Counted from the stretch's first letter, positions 3,993-61,211 are shown. The stretch is DNA of 64,000 bases from Gammaproteobacteria bacterium (GCA_965240365.1 OZ251218.1:1594765-1658764); one strand, 5' to 3'. A program made the numbers and translations. Notes: generated from the sequence alone by a model not told the origin.

Positions 3993-4817
3993 GTCATTCC
4001 TGCCTGCTGTAGGCAGGCAGGAATGTATAGTTTCAAATCACTGGATTCCGGCTTTCGCCGGAATGACGACGGGGTGTTGTTTTGACTTTCCGTCATCCTG
4101 TCTGCCTGTAGCAGACAGGGCTTTAGCAGGAATGCAAAGTCACCTCATCTAAAATAAGGCGTCAGGTATCCTGGCCACGGCATCGTTAGTATCGCTCATA
4201 AATACGTCTATCGCCCCCGTCGTCATTCCAGCGAAAGCTGGAATCCAGTGGTTTATGTCATACATTCCCGCGTAAGCGGGAATGACAATCAGGCAGGACT
4301 GGCGCTCATTTCACATCGCGGCCCGCCCTCCTGGATTCCGGCTTTCGCCGGAATGACGATGAGGTGTTGTTTTGACTTTCCGTCATCCTGTCTGCCTTTA
4401 GCAGACAGGGCTTTAGCAGGAATGCAGGGTCACCTCATCTAAAATAAGGCGTCAGTTATCCTGGCCACGGCATCGTTAGTATCGCTCATAATACGCCTAT
4501 CGCCCCCGCCGTCATTCCAGCGAAAGCTGGAATCCAGTGGTGTATGTCATACATTCCCGCTCAGGCGGGAATGACAATTAGACAGAACTGGCGCTCATTT
4601 CACATCGCGGCCCGCCCTCCTGGATTCCGGCTTTCGCCGGAATGACGATGAGGTGTTGTTTTGACTTTCCGTCATCCTGTCTGCCTGTAGCAGACAGGGC
4701 TTTAGCAGGAGTGCAGGGTGACCTCATCTAAAATAAAGGCGTCAGGTATCCTGGCCACGGTATCGTTAGTATCGCTCATATCGCCCGCTATGTTAGTAAT
4801 TTAGATGAGGTGACCCT
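3993..4817. repeat. tandem array (about 2.6 copies of 290 bp) of composite palindromic repeats
   Basis: Unit restarts with CTGGATTCCGGCTTTCGCCGGAATGAC at 4041, 4331 and 4620; each full unit contains GTCATTCC...GGAATCCAG and ATTCCC-N8-GGGAAT hairpins. Confidence 0.93.
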
Positions 4818-6375: not shown

Positions 6376-6815
6376 GCCTCTTTTAAAATCCGAGTGGGTA
6401 ATGCAATAATTCTGGCTTAATTGATGACCAGTACAGAACGGAGACGGCCTGCGGGCAGCAGGTAGGCCAAAATGACAACAGTTTCGTCATTCCAGCGAAA
6501 GCTCGCCTACAGGACGTAGGTGGTAGAGCGGCGTCTGGAACAAGCCGCCGAGGAATCCACGCCTGCCTCCGGCAGGCAGGTAGCGGGGTGGCAGGTAACT
6601 CAGCGGGGTCGGTTGGAATGAGGTATTCAGATGGTCATTCCCGCTTATGCGGGAATGTATTGTATCAACCACTGGATTCCAGCTTTCGCTGGAATGACGA
6701 TGGGGTGTTGTTCCGGCTTTACATCATTCCGGCCTGCCTGCCGCAGACAGACTCATGCCATTTTCTGCACACTCAATCCACATGCGGCTTAACCCACTCG
6801 GAACTCAAAAGAGCC
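6376..6815. mobile_element. composite MITE-like repeat, copy A
   Basis: Imperfect inverted ends at 6376-6401 and 6789-6815 (CTCTTTT..TCCGAGTGGGT); 6486-6815 recurs inverted at 14373-14758. Confidence 0.75.
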
Positions 6816-14372: not shown

Positions 14373-14758
14373 GGCTCTTTTGAGTTCCGAGTGGGTTAAG
14401 CCGCATGTGGATTGAGTGTGCAGAAAATGGCATGAGCCTGTCTGCGGCAGGCAGGCTGGAATGATGTAAAGCCGGAACAACACCCCGTCGTCATTTATGG
14501 ACAGGATGTCCTGTATGCGGCGTGAGGGCAGGATGCCCGTAGCCGCCCAGCGAAAGCTGGAATCCAGTGGTTGATACAATACATTCCCGCATAAGCGGGA
14601 ATGACCATATTCCAACCGACTCCGCTGAGTTACCTGCCACCCCGCTACCTGCCTGTAGCAGGCAGGCCTGCCTCCGGCAGGCGTGGATTCCTCGGCGGCT
14701 TGTTCCAGACGCCGCTCTACCACCTACGTCCTGTAGGCGAGCTTTCGCTGGAATGACG
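14373..14758. mobile_element. composite MITE-like repeat, copy B (inverted relative to 6486-6815)
   Basis: Near-identical reverse complement of copy A with extra internal insertions. Confidence 0.85.
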
Positions 14759-19895: not shown

Positions 19896-19964
19896 CGTCA
19901 TTCCGACGCAAGCTCGCCTGCATGGATGCAGGTGGTAGAGCAGCGCCCGCCTGCCGCAGGCAGG
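19896..19964. repeat. truncated REP-like unit with nested inserts
   Basis: CGTCATTCCGACGCAAGCT, then CGCCTGCATGGATGCAGG, then the 19-bp palindrome at 19946-19964. Confidence 0.8.
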
Positions 19965-20078: not shown

Positions 20079-20588
20079 ATGGAAATAACCGCATTCGACA
20101 CCCACGACTTCGTCAAGCGTCTGACCGAGGTCGGCATGCCCGAGGCCCAGGCCGAAATCCTGGCCGAGGAACAGTCTCGCCTGATCAAGGAGCGTCTGGC
20201 CACCAAACAGGATCTTAAGGCAATGGAAGTCGCCATCATGGAACTGAAACGCGATATCAAGGAGCTTGAAGACCGCCTTAAACGCGACATGATGGAACTG
20301 AAACGCGATATCAAGGAACTCGAAGACCGCCTCAAACGCGACCTCGGGGAACTCGAAGACCGCCTTAAACGTGACATGATGGGATTAAAACGCGACCTCA
20401 AGGAGGCCGAAGGCGGCCTCAAACGCGACCTCAAGGAGGCCGAAGGCGGCCTCAAACGCGACCTCAGGGAAGCCGAAGATCGCCTCAGACGCGACCTCAA
20501 GGAAATGGAGCAAAAACTGACCATCAAGCTCGGCGGGATCATGGTTATCGGCGTCAGCGTTTTGGCGTTACTCGTTAAACTCCTCTGA
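20079..20588 (+). CDS. CCDC90/DUF1640-like coiled-coil membrane-anchored protein with tandem repeats
   Basis: AFDTHDFVKRLTEVGMPEAQAE head, LATKQDL neck, repeated KRDxxExExxL stalk, C-terminal TM (LTIKLGGIMV...). Confidence 0.85.
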   Translation: MEITAFDTHDFVKRLTEVGMPEAQAEILAEEQSRLIKERLATKQDLKAMEVAIMELKRDIKELEDRLKRDMMELKRDIKELEDRLKRDLGELEDRLKRDMMGLKRDLKEAEGGLKRDLKEAEGGLKRDLREAEDRLRRDLKEMEQKLTIKLGGIMVIGVSVLALLVKLL

Positions 20589-23958: not shown

Positions 23959-23998
23959 TGATTTTTTGTTGCAATGCAACAAAAACAGTATATATTTA

Positions 23999-24281
23999 GG
24001 GCCTGTTTACACGATGTTGGCCGTCCTGTTGTGTCCCAAACTGCGCCAATCAAGGCGCGCGGAGCGTAGTTTGGTCATTCCAAATGAGCGACCTGCCTGC
24101 AGCAGGCAGGCAAGCAACGCCGAGTGGCGCAGTTTGGGACACAACCCGAAGGGCTTGGCCTGTTTTGCGCCCCAGCTTCGTTGTCAGTCGCTTGAGTAGC
24201 GCAACTACACTGCGCTTCTTCCGCCTTGCTGGCGCGCAAAACAGACTCAAGCAGGAAGGCCAACATAGTGTAAACAGGCCC
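23999..24281. mobile_element. MITE (283 bp), copy 1
   Basis: TIR GGGCCTGTTTACAC / GTGTAAACAGGCCC flanked by TA on both sides; inverted copy at 38185-38486. Confidence 0.9.
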
Positions 24282-38185: not shown

Positions 38186-38486
38186 GGCCTGTTTACACTA
38201 TGTTGGCCGTCCTGCTTGAGTCTGTTTTGCGCGCCAGCAAGGCGGAAGAAGCGCAGTGTAGTTGCGCTACTCAAGCGACTGACCTGCCTGCAGCAGGCAG
38301 GCAACGAAGCTGGGGCGCAAAACAGGCCAAGCCCTTCGGGTTGTGCCCCAAACTGCGCCACTCGGCGTTGCTTGCCTGCCTGCTGCAGGCAGGTCGCTCA
38401 TTTGGAATGACCAAATTTCGCTCCGCGCGCCTTGATTGGCGCAGTTTGGGGCACAACGGGACGGCCAACATAGTGTAAACAGGCCC
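38185..38486. mobile_element. MITE (302 bp), copy 2
   Basis: Reverse complement of 23999-24281 plus one extra 19-bp insert; begins in the TAG stop of the first bfr. Confidence 0.9.
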
Positions 38487-38553
38487 TGGTCCCGGCCCCG
38501 CGCCGGGCTTGACGAAGCAGACATTACCAACCCTTAAAACACAGGAAAATACG

Positions 38554-39206: not shown

Positions 39207-39285
39207 GTCATTCCGGCGAAAGCCGGAATCCAGTGGTTTATACAATACATTTCCGTCTGCCTGTCCACAGGCAGACGGAAATGAC
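39207..39285. repeat. REP-like double-hairpin unit with palindromic insert
   Basis: GTCATTCCGGCGAAAGCCGGAATCCAG ... CATTTCCG-TCTGCCTGTCCACAGGCAGA-CGGAAATGAC. Confidence 0.85.
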
Positions 39286-39440
39286 CACTAAGTGTGTTGT
39301 CCCCGCGTAAACAGGCAGAAAACTCCAGCCTCAATCCAAATTTCCCAAAGATAAAAAGCCGGATTTGTGGATTTATCCACGGTTAATTATCCATTTCCAA
39401 AAAAAAATCAAAAAAAGTCGGGTTTTTTTCAAATTTATGC

Positions 39441-39469
39441 TTGTTAATAATTCTCATTATGTCTATAAT
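39441..39469 (+). promoter_or_regulatory. sigma70 promoter overlapped by a Fur box (bfd)
   Basis: TTGTTA-17-TATAAT; TGTTAAT-A-ATTCTCA at 39442-39456. Confidence 0.7.
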
Positions 39470-39509
39470 TTGTGTCAGTTCAGTAATTAAATACCAACAA
39501 CCTGTTTCC

Positions 39510-39707
39510 ATGTATATCTGTATTTGCAGCGCCGTCACCGATTCTGACATCGATCAGGCCGTTAAAAACGGCGCGGATTGTGTGCAACATCTGGAAACCC
39601 GGCTCGGGGCCGGCATGAACTGCGGCACCTGCGCCTGTGAACTGGAACGCTGTCTTGACGAGGCCCTGGCCGGTCGGCCGGGCAAGCTGGATTTGAGGGC
39701 CTGTTAG
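39510..39707 (+). CDS. bfd: bacterioferritin-associated [2Fe-2S] ferredoxin
   Basis: MYICICSAVTD...CGTC motif next to the bfr genes. Confidence 0.92.
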   Translation: MYICICSAVTDSDIDQAVKNGADCVQHLETRLGAGMNCGTCACELERCLDEALAGRPGKLDLRAC

Positions 39708-39776
39708 TTTGTAATACCGGCTTTCTTAAAGAATTATCGTGCAGACGATAATCATCTCTCTGGTGGTGATATTATG

Positions 39777-39803
39777 GGGCGCCGCAAGGCGCCCTCTTTT
39801 TTT
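39777..39803 (+). terminator. intrinsic terminator
   Basis: GGGCGCC-GCAA-GGCGCCC followed by TCTTTTTTT. Confidence 0.85.
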
Positions 39804-39939
39804 ATTCAGGATACCCCATTCCATTAAACATCTCATCTTTAATTACTCTCCCCCGCCGCTTTTGCATACGGGCTTCCCTTAAACAAAATTTGGAATTACT
39901 ATTGTTTGTACTTTCAGGCTATAAACCACAGGTAATATT

Positions 39940-40944
39940 ATGAAAATCAAATTTCTTGTACTGCTCTTGTTATTGCAGGCCCCGGCCTTTGCCGCTGAAG
40001 TCAATGTCTATTCGGCGCGCAAGGAGGCGTTGATCAAGCCCCTGCTGGAACGTTTCACCGGGCAAACCGGGGTCACGGTCAATCTGGTCACGGGCAAGGC
40101 CGACACCCTGCTGAAGCGGCTTGAGGCGGAGGGCAGGAACAGCCCGGCCGATGTGTTGATCACGATCGATGCGGCCCGCCTGATCCGCGGCAAGCGGCTG
40201 GGCTTATTCCAGTCCACGGACTCAAACACACTGCAAGCCGCCATCCCGGCGCGGTATCGTGACGCCGATAAGCAATGGTTTGGCCTGTCCCTGCGCTCGC
40301 GCGTGCTGGTCTATGCGCCGGAGCGGGTCAATGAGTCTGAACTGGACGGCTATTTTGACCTGGCCGAGCCGAAATGGCGGGGGCGTATCTGCATTCGTTC
40401 ATCGTCCAATGTCTATAATCAATCCCTGGTTGCCGCCCTGATCGCCCATTATGGCCCGGCGCGAACCGAGCGCTGGGCCAGGGCGCTGGTGGAAAACCTG
40501 GGCCGCCCGCCCAAGGGCGGGGATCGGGATCAGATCAAGGCGGTTGCGGCCGGCGTGTGCGATGTCGCCGTGGTCAATAATTACTATCTGGCCGGTATGC
40601 TGGCCTCGACCCGCGAGGATCAGGTTCAGGCGGCGCAAAAGGTCGCGCTGTTCTGGCCGGATCAGGCCGCGCGCGGCGCCCACATGAACGTCAGCGGCGC
40701 GGCGATACTCAAGGCGGGCCGCAATAAGCCGCAGGCGTTGCAGTTGCTGGAATTTCTGGTCAGCGATGAAGCGCAACGCTGGTATGCCGAAAAAAACCAT
40801 GAATATCCGGTCAAACCCGGCATTAACAGCGGCGCCACGCTGCAAGGCTGGGGCAGTTTCAAGGCCGACAACCTGAACCTGAACCTGCTCGGCGAGCACA
40901 ACGCCGCCGCCGTAAAACTCATGGATCGGGCCGGCTGGAAATAA
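39940..40944 (+). CDS. Fe(3+) ABC transporter substrate-binding protein (FutA/FbpA-like)
   Basis: EVNVYSAR, SPADV, RSSSNVYNQSL, GGDRDQI and VNNYY motifs. Confidence 0.93.
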   Translation: MKIKFLVLLLLLQAPAFAAEVNVYSARKEALIKPLLERFTGQTGVTVNLVTGKADTLLKRLEAEGRNSPADVLITIDAARLIRGKRLGLFQSTDSNTLQAAIPARYRDADKQWFGLSLRSRVLVYAPERVNESELDGYFDLAEPKWRGRICIRSSSNVYNQSLVAALIAHYGPARTERWARALVENLGRPPKGGDRDQIKAVAAGVCDVAVVNNYYLAGMLASTREDQVQAAQKVALFWPDQAARGAHMNVSGAAILKAGRNKPQALQLLEFLVSDEAQRWYAEKNHEYPVKPGINSGATLQGWGSFKADNLNLNLLGEHNAAAVKLMDRAGWK

Positions 40945-41028
40945 CAGGCCCGGCATGCTGGTTGCCGCCCGTATCAAGCAAATCAGCAAGCCATCCTGCC
41001 GGATTCCAAGCCACGATCAGGCCGCGCC

Positions 41029-42657
41029 TTGTCTTTAAAGTGGAATCTGGCGCTGGCCATCGTGTCGCTGCTGTTCAGCGTTCCGCTGTTGGTGGTGTTT
41101 GGCTCCTTGCTGTTCCCGTCAACGGAGGTCTGGGCCCATCTGATCGATACGGTTCTCTTCGATTATATTAACAACTCCCTGCTCCTGCTCCTGGGCGTGG
41201 CCTTGCTCAGTCTGGCGCTGGGCGTGGCGCCGGCCTGGCTGGTCACCATGTACCGCTTCCCGTTGAGCCGCTGGCTGGAATGGGCCCTGCTGCTGCCGCT
41301 GGCGATACCGGCCTATATCATCGCCTACACCTACACCGGCGTGCTGGACGCGGCCGGGCCGCTGCAAAGCGGATTGCGCGAACTGGCCGGCTGGCAATAC
41401 CGCGATTACTGGTTCCCGGAGGTGCGCTCGCTGGGCGGCGCCATCGTCATGTTGTCACTGGTGCTCTACCCTTATATCTATCTGCTGGCGCGCGCGGCCT
41501 TTATCGAACAATCCGTCTGCGTGCTGGAGGTGGCGCGCACCCTGGGCTGCGCCGGCCCGCGCGCCTTCGGCCGGGTCGCGCTGCCGCTGGCGCGCCCGGC
41601 GATTATGGTCGGGCTCTCGCTGGTGATCATGGAGACCCTGGCGGATTACGGCACGGTGCAGTATTTTGGTGTCCCGGCCCTCACCACCGGCATCTTCCGC
41701 ACCTGGTTCGGCCTCGGCGACAGCCTGGCCGCGGCCCAGTTGTCGGCCCTGTTGCTGCTGTTTGTGGCGGTATTTTTATACCTCGAAAAGCGCTCGCGCC
41801 GGCAGGCGCGCTTTTATCACACCAGCAGCCGCTACGGCCGCCTGTCGCCACAGCGTTTGCGCGGGGCCAAGGCCGCCTTTGCCTCTGGCTATTGCCTCGC
41901 GCCCCTGTTATTCGGTTTTCTGATACCGGCCGGTTTCCTGCTCGGCTGGGCCCTGGACGCCCCCGCAGCGCTGGACCGGAGCTTCTACCGGCTTCTGTTT
42001 AACAGCCTGTCGCTGGCCTTGATTACCGCGCTTTGCGCCGCGGCGATCGCCCTGTTCATGGCCTATGGCGGCCGCGCTGACCCGCATTCCGCGGGCAACC
42101 GGTTTATCGTACGTTTTGTAAGCCTGGGCTATGCCATACCCGGCACGGTCATCGCGGTCGGGGTGCTGATCCCGTTCGCCTGGTTCGATAACACGCTCGA
42201 TGCCTTTTTATCGGCCCGGTTCGGCATTGACAGCGGCCTCGTCATCAGCGGCACCCTGTTTATGCTGGTGTTTGCCTACCTGATCCGGTTTCTGGCGATT
42301 TCAATCAATACCGTCGAGGCCGGCCTGATCAAGATCAAGCCGGTCATGGACGAGGTCGCAAAAACGGCCGGCCTGGGGCCGGCCGCCATTATCAGGCGCA
42401 TCCATATCCCGATGATGCGGGGCAGTCTGTTAACGGCGCTGTTGCTGGTGTTTGTCGATGTGTTGAAGGAATTGCCGGCCACGCTGATACTGCGCCCCTT
42501 TAATTACAACACGCTGGCGGTCAGGACCTATGAACTGGCCAATGAGGAAAGGCTGGCCGATGCAGCGGCGCCCGCGCTTGCGATCGTGCTGGCGGGTATC
42601 CTGCCCGTTATCCTGATCAGCAAATCCATCTCCGCCGCCCGCCCCGGCCATGAGTAA
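41029..42657 (+). CDS. Fe(3+) ABC transporter permease (FbpB-like)
   Basis: Duplicated permease with LPLARPA, ETLADYG and KELPATL.LRP motifs. Confidence 0.93.
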   Translation: MSLKWNLALAIVSLLFSVPLLVVFGSLLFPSTEVWAHLIDTVLFDYINNSLLLLLGVALLSLALGVAPAWLVTMYRFPLSRWLEWALLLPLAIPAYIIAYTYTGVLDAAGPLQSGLRELAGWQYRDYWFPEVRSLGGAIVMLSLVLYPYIYLLARAAFIEQSVCVLEVARTLGCAGPRAFGRVALPLARPAIMVGLSLVIMETLADYGTVQYFGVPALTTGIFRTWFGLGDSLAAAQLSALLLLFVAVFLYLEKRSRRQARFYHTSSRYGRLSPQRLRGAKAAFASGYCLAPLLFGFLIPAGFLLGWALDAPAALDRSFYRLLFNSLSLALITALCAAAIALFMAYGGRADPHSAGNRFIVRFVSLGYAIPGTVIAVGVLIPFAWFDNTLDAFLSARFGIDSGLVISGTLFMLVFAYLIRFLAISINTVEAGLIKIKPVMDEVAKTAGLGPAAIIRRIHIPMMRGSLLTALLLVFVDVLKELPATLILRPFNYNTLAVRTYELANEERLADAAAPALAIVLAGILPVILISKSISAARPGHE

Positions 42658-43696
42658 CGCGCTTGAGATAAAGGCGCTGTCTGCCGCGCTGGAAGGCCGG
42701 CCCGTGCTGACAGAAATCGCGTTCAGCCTGTCCGGAGCCGGGATCGCCTGTCTGCTCGGGCCGAGCGGTTGCGGCAAGACCACCTTGTTGCGCTGTATCG
42801 CCGGTTTTGAACAGCCGCGGCGGGGCGAAATCTGGATCAACGGGCGCAAGGTCAGCGGCCCGGACGGCCATGTGCCCGTGGAACACAGGCAGGTTGGCAT
42901 GGTGTTTCAGGATTACGCCCTGTTCCCGCACCTGAGCGTGGCCGACAATATTACTTTCGGCCTCAAAAAGACGACCTCGGCCAGGGTCAAGCGGCGCCTG
43001 GATGAACTGATCGCGCTGTTCTCGCTCGACGATTACGCCGAGCGGTTTCCGCACAGCCTGTCCGGCGGCCAACAACAGCGCGTCGCGCTGGCGCGGGCGA
43101 TGGCGCCGCGGCCAGGCGTGTTATTGCTGGATGAACCCTTTGCCGGGCTTGACGTGGAACTGCGCGAACAACTGGCGCGTGAACTGCGCCGGATCCTCAA
43201 GCAGGACGGCATAACCACCATCCTGGTCAGCCATAACCAGTTGGAGGCGTTTGCGATGGCGGACGTGATCGGCGTGATGGCGGCCGGCAGACTGTTGCAG
43301 TGGGACGGCGCGCTCGAACTTTACCATGAACCGAATTGCCCCGGCGTGGCCGATTTTGTCGGCGAGGGCGTGTTTATCCCGGGCCGGGTCGTGAACGACC
43401 GGGAAGTCAGCACGGAAATCGGCAACATCAAGGGCCGGCTGCCGGCGGGCCTCGCGCCGGGAGAGCCGGTTAACGTGTTGATCCGGCCGGATGATATTCT
43501 GCACGACGATAACAGCGCAATGACGGCCCGCGTGAAAGACAAGGCCTTCAGGGGTGCGACATTTCTCTACACGCTGGAGACAGAGCGCGGTTTAAAGCTG
43601 CTAAGCCTCGTGCCCAGCCATCACGACCACTCGCTCAATGAACCGCTCGGCATCCGCCCCGAGGTTGAACACCTGGTCGTGTTTCCAAAGAAATAA
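42650..43696 (+). CDS. Fe(3+) ABC transporter ATP-binding protein (FbpC-like)
   Basis: GPSGCGKT, LSGGQQQRVALAR and LLLDEPF motifs. Confidence 0.94.
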   Translation: MSNALEIKALSAALEGRPVLTEIAFSLSGAGIACLLGPSGCGKTTLLRCIAGFEQPRRGEIWINGRKVSGPDGHVPVEHRQVGMVFQDYALFPHLSVADNITFGLKKTTSARVKRRLDELIALFSLDDYAERFPHSLSGGQQQRVALARAMAPRPGVLLLDEPFAGLDVELREQLARELRRILKQDGITTILVSHNQLEAFAMADVIGVMAAGRLLQWDGALELYHEPNCPGVADFVGEGVFIPGRVVNDREVSTEIGNIKGRLPAGLAPGEPVNVLIRPDDILHDDNSAMTARVKDKAFRGATFLYTLETERGLKLLSLVPSHHDHSLNEPLGIRPEVEHLVVFPKK

Positions 43697-43751
43697 GGGG
43701 CGATTGTACAGGTTCAGGCAGAAGTGAGACTTTTCCAGGAAAAGAAACCGG

Positions 43752-43830
43752 GTTGCCTGCGGCAGGCAGGCGAAAGCCGGAATCCAGTGGTTTATGAAAT
43801 ACATTCCCGCTGGGCCTGCTACAGGCAACA
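43752..43830. repeat. truncated REP-like unit with palindromic inserts
   Basis: ..GCCTGCGGCAGGCAGG-CGAAAGCCGGAATCCAGTGGTTTATGAAATACATTCCCGC. Confidence 0.8.
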
Positions 43831-46771: not shown

Positions 46772-46818
46772 AGCAGCTTACAGGCGTTTGCATGCTCAGC
46801 CAAAGGCAAAAACGGCCA

Positions 46819-47166
46819 TCATGTTTCTGCATCCGGCGCTTTCCCCGCTGGTTCTGTAGTTTGCCGCTTCGGTAACCGCGATAGTTTGCGGCCTTTGGCG
46901 AGTTCCTTGAAACTGCCCGCCTGTTGCAGGCAGGCGACCCAGGACTTGACGACATCGTGGTCCCGGGTCTCGCCGGTGATTTCAAATTTCTCCCATCTGG
47001 CCAGGACCAACTGCCGCTCAGCCTCCAGAGCTTCTTCAATATCGAGAAACCGCTCTATCGCGGTTTTCATCAGATAGTGCGGTGTTGTATTCCTGGCCTT
47101 ACTCAAGGCTGCCAGACGGGCCTCAATGTCTCCGCTCAATTGCACCTTTGCCATAGCTTTGCTCAT
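46819..47166 (-). CDS. CopG/ribbon-helix-helix antitoxin-like protein
   Basis: VQLSGDIEARLAALS..R..TPHYLMKTAIERFLD.EE ... W..F..TGE..DHD.V..W pattern. Confidence 0.75.
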   Translation of the reverse strand: MSKAMAKVQLSGDIEARLAALSKARNTTPHYLMKTAIERFLDIEEALEAERQLVLARWEKFEITGETRDHDVVKSWVACLQQAGSFKELAKGRKLSRLPKRQTTEPAGKAPDAET

Positions 47167-47201
47167 GTTGTGGTTCAATGTAACACAAGGTAGTACAAAT
47201 T

Positions 47202-47335
47202 GTCATTCCCGCCCAGGCCCTGCCTGCTGCAGGCAGGGGGAATGTATTACATAAAACACTGGATTCCTCGGCGGCCTGTTCCTGACGCCGCTCTACCACC
47301 TGCATCCATGCAGGCGAGCTTTCGCTGGAATGACG
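47202..47335. repeat. REP-like unit (minus orientation) carrying both insert types
   Basis: 19-bp palindrome at 47219-47237 and GGA double hairpin at about 47267-47316. Confidence 0.88.
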
Positions 47336-58532: not shown

Positions 58533-59222
58533 ATGCCGGCCCCCCTCAAACTGATTGTCGGCCTCGGCAATCCCGGCGCGCGCTATGCCATGACCCGGCA
58601 TAACGCCGGTTTCTGGTTTATTGATGCGCTGGCCGCCAGATTTTCCGTGGACTTTTCCGCCGACCGGAAATTTCACTCCGAACTCGGCCGTTATCGGAGC
58701 GGCCCCGTGGATTGCCGCCTGTGCAAGCCGCAGACCTTTATGAACGAGAGCGGCACGGCCGTCTCCGCCCTGCTCGGTTATTACAAGCTCCCGCTGGAGC
58801 AAGTGTTGATCGTGCATGACGAGATCGACCTTGCGCCGGGCAATGTCCGTTTCAAGATCGGCGGTGGTCATGGCGGCAATAACGGCCTGCGGGATATTAT
58901 CGGCAAAACGGGCCATAAAGGGTTTAATCGCCTGCGAATCGGCGTGGGTCATCCCGGCAGCGCCGACCGGGTCCTGGCTTATGTGCTGGCAAGACCGGCC
59001 CCGGAGCATGAACAGGCCATAAACAACGGCATCCGCCGGGTGCTTGATGAGCACGAAAAGCTGTTCGCCGGCCAAATCCAGGATTTGATGAACCTGTTGA
59101 ATGAACGCAACAAACCGGCCGCCGGGCAGGCAAACGGGAATGGCCCCCCCTCCCGTCATTCCGGCCTGCCTGCTACAGGCAGGCGAAAGCCGGAATCCAC
59201 GAAGGGAGTGCCGGGGTGTTGA
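58533..59222 (+). CDS. pth: peptidyl-tRNA hydrolase with repeat-derived C-terminal extension
   Basis: LIVGLGNPG, TRHNAG, KPQTFMNESG, HDEID and RLRIGVGHP motifs. Confidence 0.95.
   Translation: MPAPLKLIVGLGNPGARYAMTRHNAGFWFIDALAARFSVDFSADRKFHSELGRYRSGPVDCRLCKPQTFMNESGTAVSALLGYYKLPLEQVLIVHDEIDLAPGNVRFKIGGGHGGNNGLRDIIGKTGHKGFNRLRIGVGHPGSADRVLAYVLARPAPEHEQAINNGIRRVLDEHEKLFAGQIQDLMNLLNERNKPAAGQANGNGPPSRHSGLPATGRRKPESTKGVPGC
59154..59199. repeat. REP-like hairpin with 19-bp insert inside the pth reading frame
   Basis: CGTCATTCCGG-CCTGCCTGCTACAGGCAGG-CGAAAGCCGGAATCCA. Confidence 0.9.
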
Positions 59223-61077: not shown

Positions 61078-61211
61078 ATAAATCCATCCTGGATTTCCCT
61101 GCCTGCTGCAGGCAGGGCTTCAAAATCAATGACTTACGTCATTGCCAAGTTATTGATTCTGGGGCGGCACGTCCCTGTACCGCAGGAAACTCTGATTCAA
61201 TCAGAGTTTCC
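61067..61211. mobile_element. short MITE-like element
   Basis: Imperfect inverted ends GGAAGCCCTGAATAAAT / ATTCAATCAGAGTTTCC; two inverted IHF-consensus sites; 19-bp palindrome at 61098-61116. Confidence 0.6.

Follow-up and report, generated by a model that had tools for sequence, protein, structure and literature searches.

A 19-bp palindrome as a probable ultra-small insertion element in a gammaproteobacterial genome

Introduction

Can a palindrome of only 19 bp be a mobile element in its own right? The question is raised by a stretch of 64,000 nucleotides from a Gammaproteobacteria bacterium (GCA_965240365.1 OZ251218.1:1594765-1658764; hereafter the window), in which a preliminary description made from the sequence alone had noticed about 20 copies of a short palindrome, almost always inside another repeat. 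There it was proposed to be a non-autonomous hairpin, far smaller than ordinary miniature inverted-repeat transposable elements (MITEs), that targets structured DNA and is possibly moved by an enzyme acting on single-stranded DNA (ssDNA) hairpins. Here, we followed the palindrome through the window, the whole genome and the genomes of other organisms. Our results make it likely that the palindrome is a real, ultra-small insertion element that has been copied into hundreds of places in the genome.

Such an element would rank among the smallest mobile DNA elements seen; all mobile DNA for which a mechanism has been described is longer than 19 bp. It would also be a sequence-defined and tractable system in which to ask how hairpin repeats multiply. 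In addition, the inserts have an impact on annotation: they split real genes and break short-read assemblies, and many matches lie at contig ends.

Sequence and copy number of the palindrome

The pattern CCTGCCTG-N3-CAGGCAGG was searched with up to two mismatches, and a copy was considered exact when both 8-base arms were exact. The window contains 17 matches against 0.05 expected, and none of 100 dinucleotide shuffles reached 17. These are the 15 copies located in the preliminary description and two more, at 4101 and 4680. A scan of the whole genome (3,663,640 bp in one contig, 56.8% G+C, 96.6% complete), which had been suggested there, yielded 1028 matches, far beyond those of the window: 573 exact, 237 with one mismatch and 218 with two. 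In total the palindrome makes up about 20 kb of the 3.66 Mb genome.

The three-letter loop varies as described earlier, with CAG or CTG in 544 copies of the genome, CGG or CCG in 184, TAG or CTA in 100 and CAA or TTG in 73. The CAG/CTG and CGG/CCG loops extend the arms to a 9-bp stem around a single centre base. As these loops are present in most copies, the true consensus is CCTGCCTGC-N-GCAGGCAGG, a perfect palindrome of 19 bp whose 9-bp arms enclose one free base. The TAG/CTA and CAA/TTG loops are transition derivatives of the stem-forming ones. In each of the 497 copies whose 9-bp arms are exact, a single base forms the centre; centres of zero, two or three bases do not occur. As ssDNA, the 19-mer is predicted to fold with -9.1 kcal/mol (z = -3.1). 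Transitions account for 464 of the 673 mismatches in degenerate copies, an excess that fits decay of older copies. The arms also slip in steps of 4 bp: variants of 11, 15 and 23 bp exist in the genome, and the left arm has grown to (CCTG)6 in the copy at L004:1943-1978 (G000 about 2,534,060).

Presence and absence of exactly 19 bp

From all 1028 copies we took 45 bases of flank on either side, aligned them to the genome by BLAST and measured the gap between flank matches reaching the junction. Paralogous flanks were 0 bp apart in 2818 pairs and 19 bp apart in 3409 pairs, and the distance was negative in none. Minor classes at 36 (334 pairs), 55 (124 pairs) and 4 bp (89 pairs) can be attributed to other small modules, to arms that have slipped by 4 bp and to tandem doubles. 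Since flanks are either 0 or 19 bp apart and never overlap, the insert is exactly 19 bp long and no target base is duplicated. The ambiguous duplication of at most 1-3 nt allowed for in the preliminary description thus needs correction, as duplication is absent altogether. The flank pairs differ by exact 19-bp indels, unlike motifs that arise in place by point change or recombination.

Linking copies that share both flanks resulted in 686 site groups, 604 of them singletons. Filled and empty paralogs occur together in 69 groups, and in 41 of these one filled copy is found against 1-33 empty ones. This agrees with discrete and independent insertion into many unrelated hosts, as had been suggested. 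It had also been considered that all copies might trace to one or two ancestral insertions spread passively by duplication of their hosts; 686 site groups with 604 singletons argue against this. Passive spread with a mobile host also happens, once the palindrome sits inside it. In the 82 multi-copy groups the centre base is mostly constant relative to the host, and 14 groups hold both CAG and CTG.

Both filled and empty pairs first pointed out in the window hold. The two MITE copies differ by exactly 19 gap letters, with the target GACTGA^CAACG empty in copy 1, and the hairpin GTCATTCCGG^CGAAAGCCGGAATCC, empty at 39207, contains the palindrome at 59165. Genome-wide, the MITE is present in about 40 copies of three classes, 264 bp without insert (the largest class), 283-285 bp with one insert and 302 bp with two, which show 38-41, 19-23 and 0 gap letters, respectively, when compared with a 302-bp copy.

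As an independent check, we used contigs assembled from public runs of two studies (X1, X3, X4, X7 and others). A contig from X4 covering 39217-43791 runs through the copy at 43752; contigs from X1 and X3 end at 43783. An X1 contig bridges the copy at 46916 without a gap. The palindrome is therefore no assembly artefact, since contigs from independent runs bridge its copies. Moreover, one X4 contig, which spans 46784-47286 and comes from a diverged sister strain, is short of exactly 19 letters, so that the copy at 46916 or 47219 is absent there. The whole 302-bp MITE is polymorphic as well: one contig each in X1 and X7 lacks it, the 304 bp between 38184 and 38489 being skipped.

Target sites and orientation

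To describe the junctions, we aligned the flanks of the 573 exact copies. Position -1 is A in a fraction of.43 and G in.37 (80% purine), and position +1 is T in.43 and C in.35 (78% pyrimidine). The bias is confined to these two positions, beyond which the flanks are heterogeneous. Of the purine^C rule proposed earlier the purine side stands and the strict C does not; the rule is purine^pyrimidine. Among inserts flanked by A and C, 56 have A in the centre and 14 have T, and among those flanked by G and T, 49 have T and 16 have A; G and C centres are enriched at G^C steps. Either orientation is thus used, with a bias by the target bases (5'-A[..A..]C-3'). We did not find a replication strand bias (Fisher p = 0.23 for all copies and 1.0 for singletons), a comparison in which the replichores are doubtful given the skew extremes. 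The curve of cumulative GC skew is lowest at 2.34 Mb and highest at 3.27 Mb, giving apparent replichores of very unequal length.

Copies are depleted from long open reading frames (ORFs): 336 of 1028 lie within stop-to-stop frames of at least 150 aa, which span 85% of the genome. The remaining 692 occupy about 545 kb of non-ORF DNA, approximately 1 per 790 bp. At 77-85% of the non-ORF sites at least one flank is repeated three or more times in the genome, compared with 38% of 1000 random non-ORF points. The enrichment in repeats is therefore about two-fold, and the absence of enrichment that would have spoken against the preliminary description was not observed. The hosts are hairpins of the Ssn/NTS type, other small hairpin modules, the MITE and transposase genes, and surviving copies are found only in dispensable DNA; we recognised no housekeeping gene among the interrupted frames.

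The idea that structured DNA is targeted did not find support. The predicted pairing state at the insertion point is the same at sites, at points shifted by 12 bases and at random non-ORF points, and the folding energy of 60 nt is -7.4 at sites, -7.7 at the shifted points in the same hosts and -6.6 at random non-ORF points. Only 72 of the 1028 copies lie within GTCATTCC..GGAAT hairpins, 36 of these at GTCATTCCGG^CGAAAGCCGGAAT.

Transposase genes as hosts

With the 19 bp taken out, an ORF runs across the junction for at least 80 aa in both directions at 89 sites, compared with 37-40 sites when 17, 18, 20 or 21 bp, or none, are taken out. In 25 site groups restoration occurred with 19 bp only. 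Every recognisable ORF among them is a transposase, of the rve, IS5, IS1595 or IS4 type as named by eye, and the rest are unrecognised and probably spurious frames. As judged from these reading frames, the palindrome frameshifts its host transposase genes, and many transposase genes of this genome are broken.

The region at 360-362 kb harbours two insertion sequences (IS) full of palindrome copies. One of them has 9 BLAST matches in the genome, 8 of them near-full, and the near-full copies carry 4-7 inserts, with 0, 19, 38 or 57 gap letters relative to the query. A copy of the palindrome was found within 500 bp of 39 of the 54 transposase-domain matches (PF00665, PF01609). The density around these domains is 1 per 991 bp, compared with 1 per 3564 bp genome-wide, and is near the non-ORF value. 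Targeting of IS is thus indistinguishable from mere tolerance, and the preference for repeats can equally be explained by tolerance. Uninterrupted transposase frames are also present (454 aa, 371 aa and 328-356 aa). A parent IS with the palindrome arms as its ends was considered and rejected, as the 220 and 248 solo half-sites (about 89 expected from composition) share no interior.

Insertion, loss or selected function

Two observations count against a simple history of insertion. First, three dispersed copies of the IS at G000:C1:360424-361664, 99.4-99.7% identical, share five identical frameshifting inserts; between one and three inserts set the remaining near-full copies apart, and no copy is free of them. 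Copies sharing five inserts need trans-mobilisation, gene conversion or hot spots. Second, the comparison set of 40 relatives includes no genome of the same genus, and individual sites lack polarisation by an outgroup.

The last point would also leave room for the reverse process, in which the host repeats once universally carried the palindrome as an old feature and the empty sites have lost it by precise deletion, through excision as a hairpin during replication. Perfect palindromes are indeed unstable in bacteria. Nevertheless, we consider this explanation, which the preliminary description had named as one that would refute it, highly improbable: at 41 sites a single filled copy stands against up to 33 empty ones and the largest MITE class is the empty one, the hosts are unrelated families that include transposase frames intact only without the 19 bp, and there are no flanking direct repeats that could guide an exact loss.

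Alternatively, the palindrome may have been multiplied by selection for a cell function, for example as a protein-binding site, an ssDNA signal of the uptake or restriction type, or a terminator. Its stable predicted hairpin and its location 30-70 bp past several gene ends are in line with this, and Ssn/NTS repeats modulate transformation in Neisseria (PMC11893778). Selection leaves unexplained the exact 19-bp units at new sites and the broken transposase frames, and 455 of 1028 copies carry mismatches, many of them decaying. As an account of how the copies arose, function is rather unlikely; it can concern maintenance only and is then compatible with mobility.

Distribution in other organisms

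Among 40 relatives, the palindrome was found only in G011, and it is absent from 23 of 24 relatives of the same family. Two of the three copies in G011 lie in the duplicated leader of Sel1-repeat genes and one at a gene end, with no nuclease nearby. The exact 19-mer is present in at least 113 stretches of a collection of species-representative genomes from many phyla; Acidobacteriota, Bacteroidota, Ignavibacteriota, Desulfobacterota, Brocadiaceae, candidate phyla and others are among the matches listed. By chance about 9 stretches are expected for 18 fixed bases in 596 Gb, assuming uniform composition. Five genomes of different phyla hold 102, 33, 112, 11 and 44 exact copies. Around the Ignavibacteriota genome G045, 24 of 61 relatives carry the palindrome, 9 of them in 12-80 copies.

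In a small sample of fetched loci, filled and empty pairs were also found outside this genome (L065 and L077; L205:1762 and L205:1416). Removal of 19 bp restored interrupted ORFs at 13 of 107 copies in other phyla, which does not differ from the 9-13 in controls.

Which enzyme could move the palindrome

An HUH enzyme of the RAYT/TnpA type had been put forward as a possible driver. In the repetitive extragenic palindromic (REP) sequences and their doublets (REPINs), miniature palindromes without target duplication are thought to be moved as ssDNA hairpins by a single-copy enzyme, RAYT, whose gene is flanked by its repeats (Bertels & Rainey 2011, PMC3116915). The palindrome resembles these sequences as a short GC-rich hairpin in hundreds of copies, without duplication and in either orientation. 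A GTAGA or GCAGA pentamer that precedes a 20-bp form of the palindrome beside several GIY-YIG genes in metagenome loci would also be in favour of a REP-type element moved by a RAYT or an IS200-type Y1 HUH transposase. However, PF01797, the profile of these enzymes, did not match in this genome, where all 3 first-look candidates failed on scoring, whereas the same search gave matches in 6 of 14 control genomes. GTAGA was seen only beside the 20-bp form near GIY-YIG genes of other organisms, and the dispersed copies here carry no conserved tetranucleotide such as the GTAG tag. They are singlets without a preferred REPIN-like doublet spacing (the commonest, 55 bp, occurs only 10 times among 1027 intervals) and are found within transposase genes, and the genes adjoining the palindrome elsewhere encode GIY-YIG and not Y1 proteins. 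The HUH driver is thus very unlikely.

The preliminary description had also allowed for another hairpin-processing enzyme encoded elsewhere, and here a small GIY-YIG nuclease is the leading candidate. The 19-mer lies 30-170 bp from small GIY-YIG genes in L120 (on both sides), L133, L099, L029 and L091. For the seven GIY-YIG proteins that we compared with Pfam, PF01541 was the sole significant domain, and the two proteins of this genome that were compared with NCBIfam reached no curated cut-off. An alignment of four proteins of the approximately 83-aa type (A1) retrieved 80 metagenome loci, 25 of which contain a palindrome with these arms, mostly in the 20-bp form with CG in the centre, compared with 3 and 1 of 80 for two control patterns. 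The copies are mostly within about 230 bp of the gene (two are at 605 and 1385 bp), typically 11-57 bp upstream of the GIY-YIG match, and 6 loci carry one on each side. Of the genes that the preliminary description had suggested looking for (RAYT, TnpA or GIY-YIG), only GIY-YIG was seen flanked by the palindrome, in other organisms and not in this genome. An all-against-all comparison of ORFs from 113 loci revealed no dominant shared neighbour family, with a small GIY-YIG gene in 3 loci.

Directly upstream of the GIY-YIG gene we observed a tRNA-Leu in 6 of 10 palindrome-bearing loci examined. Cassettes of approximately 300 bp with a GIY-YIG gene lie downstream of tRNA-Leu at L205:1354-1800 and in L120, L137, L146, L156 and L164. 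In L205 the gene is located between the tRNA-Leu and a duplicated 3' half of the tRNA, a signature of an integrating element, and the 19-mer sits in the T stem of that half.

A number of results weigh against the link to the nuclease. This genome has five PF01541 matches (Table 1), none of them an intact gene of the palindrome-flanked type. The one at 1707 kb covers profile positions 4-59 of 83 before an A9 run and a change of frame, with no 19-mer within about 2 kb, while the genes at 737 and 2533 kb have only NTS-like hairpins or one expanded copy nearby. In L205 the palindrome is a later insertion into the duplicated tRNA piece beside the gene, and adjacency could mean that the palindrome lands in multi-copy GIY-YIG cassettes as it does in IS. 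Two draft metagenome-assembled genomes with many copies, G041 (102) and G042 (33), have as their only GIY-YIG matches one in a 665-aa frame and one YhbQ-like match, respectively. Relatives of the nuclease occur in 58 of the 61 genomes around G045, yet 37 of the 61 lack the palindrome, and G053, G059 and G062 have nuclease matches of 99-122 bits and no palindrome. The presence of the family does not, therefore, predict that of the palindrome, and the co-occurrence across genomes proposed as a further check was uninformative. As a side observation, the truncated domain of this genome lies inside an hsdM remnant, and in the Brocadiaceae genome with 112 palindromes the same domain is embedded in the frame of an hsdM-like C-terminus (L123).

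With no intact matching gene here and no predictive value of the nuclease, the palindrome might depend on no dedicated enzyme at all. Copies could arise by a general host process that happens to favour this sequence, such as ligation of self-folding hairpin oligonucleotides into nicks, template switching or a hairpin made by a reverse transcriptase (RT), and land in any tolerated DNA, be it IS, MITEs or hairpin repeats, as in the secondary insertion of L205; the link to GIY-YIG would then be mere co-location. Against this, the same 18 fixed bases have been amplified in several phyla and are missing in 23 of 24 same-family and 37 of 61 G045 relatives. Since the distribution is patchy, a transferable factor fits better than a universal process. 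The position relative to the gene is stereotyped, mostly within about 60 bp upstream and on both sides in 6 loci. An RT-made template was also rejected, since a search allowing 3 mismatches found no palindrome less than 3.5 kb from the sole clear RT of the genome (1590 kb). Taken together, a general host process is unlikely, though it deserves some weight. The RT, of 298 aa, is located just upstream of the window (L221 = G000:C1:1589204-1592707) beside an XRE-type regulator and a DNA methyltransferase, in a defence-like island.

We return to the GIY-YIG nuclease, which remains a reasonable possibility as the driver, if somewhat short of probable. The palindrome may move as an ssDNA hairpin, with the enzyme supplied in trans. 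The best candidate would be a subclade of small single-domain (Ssn-like) GIY-YIG nucleases, whose genes elsewhere seem to carry the palindrome, mostly in the 20-bp CG-centred form, just up- and downstream, in a repeat-nuclease-repeat arrangement as in Ssn. The released hairpin could be pasted by ligation into a nick or gap. As the matching gene is degenerate here, the copies of this genome may be left over from earlier bursts. Going further, one may speculate that the 19- and 20-bp palindromes are cargo-less mobile partners of a subclade of miniature GIY-YIG single-strand nucleases, which would release or open the hairpin, and that the 19-nt hairpin is then pasted into exposed ssDNA without duplication by a novel chemistry, possibly acting as an IS-inactivating agent. 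We hold this tentatively and as doubtful. If true, transposition would here follow a chemistry to which the DDE, HUH, serine and tyrosine enzymes are unrelated, and by accumulating in IS and other repeats the palindrome might in effect inactivate IS across several phyla. The question bears on the role of thousands of uncharacterised small GIY-YIG genes and on whether micro-insertions can restrain insertion sequences.

Relation to known systems

A close parallel is provided by the Ssn nucleases and their NTS/SRM hairpin repeats, for which single-strand cleavage and an effect on transformation have been shown, and insertion has not, in the parts of the report on which we rely (Chenal et al. 2025, PMC11893778). 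Like them, the palindrome is a hairpin present in hundreds of copies with a wide phyletic spread, and in other organisms it lies beside small single-domain GIY-YIG genes, sometimes on both sides. The NTS, of about 28-30 nt, is defined by a conserved directional flank upstream of its hairpin; the 19-mer is shorter and perfectly palindromic, and its flanks are heterogeneous. For the 19-mer, exact filled and empty sites are documented, including inside genes. The palindrome-flanked nucleases form a sequence group visibly different from SsnA-like proteins; they were compared on Pfam, and the Ssn family is cd10448 of CDD. This genome also carries the Ssn/NTS system itself.

MITEs such as Correia/NEMIS, ERIC and RPE are 100-300 bp long and have IS-derived terminal inverted repeats and target duplications. 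The palindrome is likewise non-autonomous, multi-copy and sometimes inside genes, but has no duplication and no parent IS. It lacks the defining features of both REP/RAYT and MITEs and belongs to the hairpin-repeat kind, together with REP and NTS/SRM, whose multiplication it may help to understand. Hairpins and IS are also associated in the IS that target REPs (IS1397, ISKpn1 and the IS110 family); here the roles are reversed, with the hairpin as guest and the IS as host. Motifs of the DNA uptake sequence type are of another kind, as the palindrome differs between sites by exact 19-bp indels. In behaviour, the palindrome recalls the small dispersed repeats (SDRs) of cyanobacteria, which Elhai et al. 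are said to have reported in 2008 as repeats of 21-27 nt that insert into other repeats and into themselves, and to have proposed as the smallest mobile elements, moving through an RNA intermediate, with no enzyme reported for them. The eight SDR sequence families are reportedly confined to heterocystous cyanobacteria. The 19-mer has another sequence, belongs to another phylum, is a perfect palindrome, extends across phyla and has a candidate nuclease partner.

None of the four 19-mer strings was found in the literature searched, nor was any GIY-YIG-linked mobile palindrome beyond Chenal et al. (2025), whose supplementary tables of SRM variants might include the motif. The available passages of the Minerva preprint do not treat the element.

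Copies and hosts in the window

The copies of the window, their hosts and the GIY-YIG matches of the genome are listed in Table 1. The degenerate copies at 4101 and 4680 illustrate passive spread, since the latter lies in another tandem unit and has the same degenerate sequence.

Table 1. Palindrome copies, hosts and empty targets in the window (positions counted from its first letter) and GIY-YIG matches in the genome (positions in kb, where given).
Feature	Position	Strand	Context	Remark
Palindrome, 1 mismatch	3999..4017		At TTGTCATT^CAGGAATG	
Degenerate copy TCTGCCTGTAGCAGACAGG	4101..4119		Carried in 289-bp tandem repeat	
Degenerate copy TCTGCCTGTAGCAGACAGG	4680..4698		Another unit of the 289-bp tandem repeat	
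Palindrome, 1 mismatch	6562..6580		Repeat family of 14648, opposite orientation	
Degenerate copy, 2 mismatches	6733..6751			
Palindrome, 1 mismatch	14437..14455		Reverse complement of the context at 6733	
Palindrome, exact, loop TAG	14648..14666		Adjoins 15-bp short variant CCTGCCTCCGGCAGG	
Palindrome, 1 mismatch, loop CAA	16888..16906		At ..TATGCGGCGA^	
Palindrome, 1 mismatch	19946..19964		At ..GGTAGAGCAGCG^TCGAG	
MITE copy 1 (host)	23998..24280	-	283 bp, single insert	19 gap letters vs copy 2
Palindrome, exact	24092..24110		Sole insert of MITE copy 1	Site equivalent to 38375
Empty target GACTGA^CAACG	24179..24189	-	MITE copy 1	Equivalent to the site at 38283
MITE copy 2 (host)	38186..38487	+	302 bp	264-bp element plus two 19-mers
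Palindrome, exact, centre A	38283..38301		First insert of MITE copy 2, at GCGACTGA^CAACGAAG	Site group 9: 9 filled, 26 empty
Palindrome, exact, centre T	38375..38393		Second insert of MITE copy 2, at GTTGCTTG^TCGCTCAT	Site group 6: 11 filled, 24 empty
Empty Ssn/NTS-type hairpin	39207..39233	+	GTCATTCCGG^CGAAAGCCGGAATCC	Commonest hairpin target, 36 filled cases genome-wide
Palindrome, 2 mismatches	43752..43770		In GG^CGAAAGCCGGAATCC hairpin	
Palindrome, 1 mismatch	46916..46934		Context unrepeated within the window	
Palindrome, exact	47219..47237		Inside GTCATTCCCGCCCAGGC^GGGAAT	Site group 336: 1 filled, 5 empty
Palindrome, loop CTA	59165..59183		Fills hairpin site GTCATTCCGG^CGAAAGCCGGAATCC	Empty at 39207
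Palindrome, exact	61098..61116		Between two small hairpin modules, ..GGATTTC^GCTTCAAAATCAATGA..	
SsnA-like GIY-YIG gene, 97 aa	737 kb		14 NTS-like hairpins within 3 kb	
Truncated GIY-YIG, palindrome-associated type	1707 kb (L005 = G000:C1:1705696-1708863)	-	Inside hsdM remnant	
YhbQ-like GIY-YIG gene, 96 aa	2533 kb		Single (CCTG)6-expanded palindrome copy about 200 bp downstream	
GIY-YIG match in 628-aa frame				Taken to be UvrC
GIY-YIG domain in 505-aa frame				Exonuclease-like frame

Other small modules occur in the same mosaics throughout the genome, for example near 61098 of the window. A 36-bp unit with a AAGGTGAAAAT..ATTTTCACCTT hairpin is also exactly present or absent, and likewise a 42-bp unit with a AATCAATGA..TCATTGATT hairpin; these modules appear as gap classes of 36, 42 and 55. 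The tandem repeat at 4041-4780 consists of three units of approximately 289 bp, each with hairpin repeats and a degenerate 19-mer. Finally, the window contains a coding tandem repeat at 20190-20535, with periods of 33 and 54 nt and heptad-like units of the type LKRD(I/L)KE(L/A)E.

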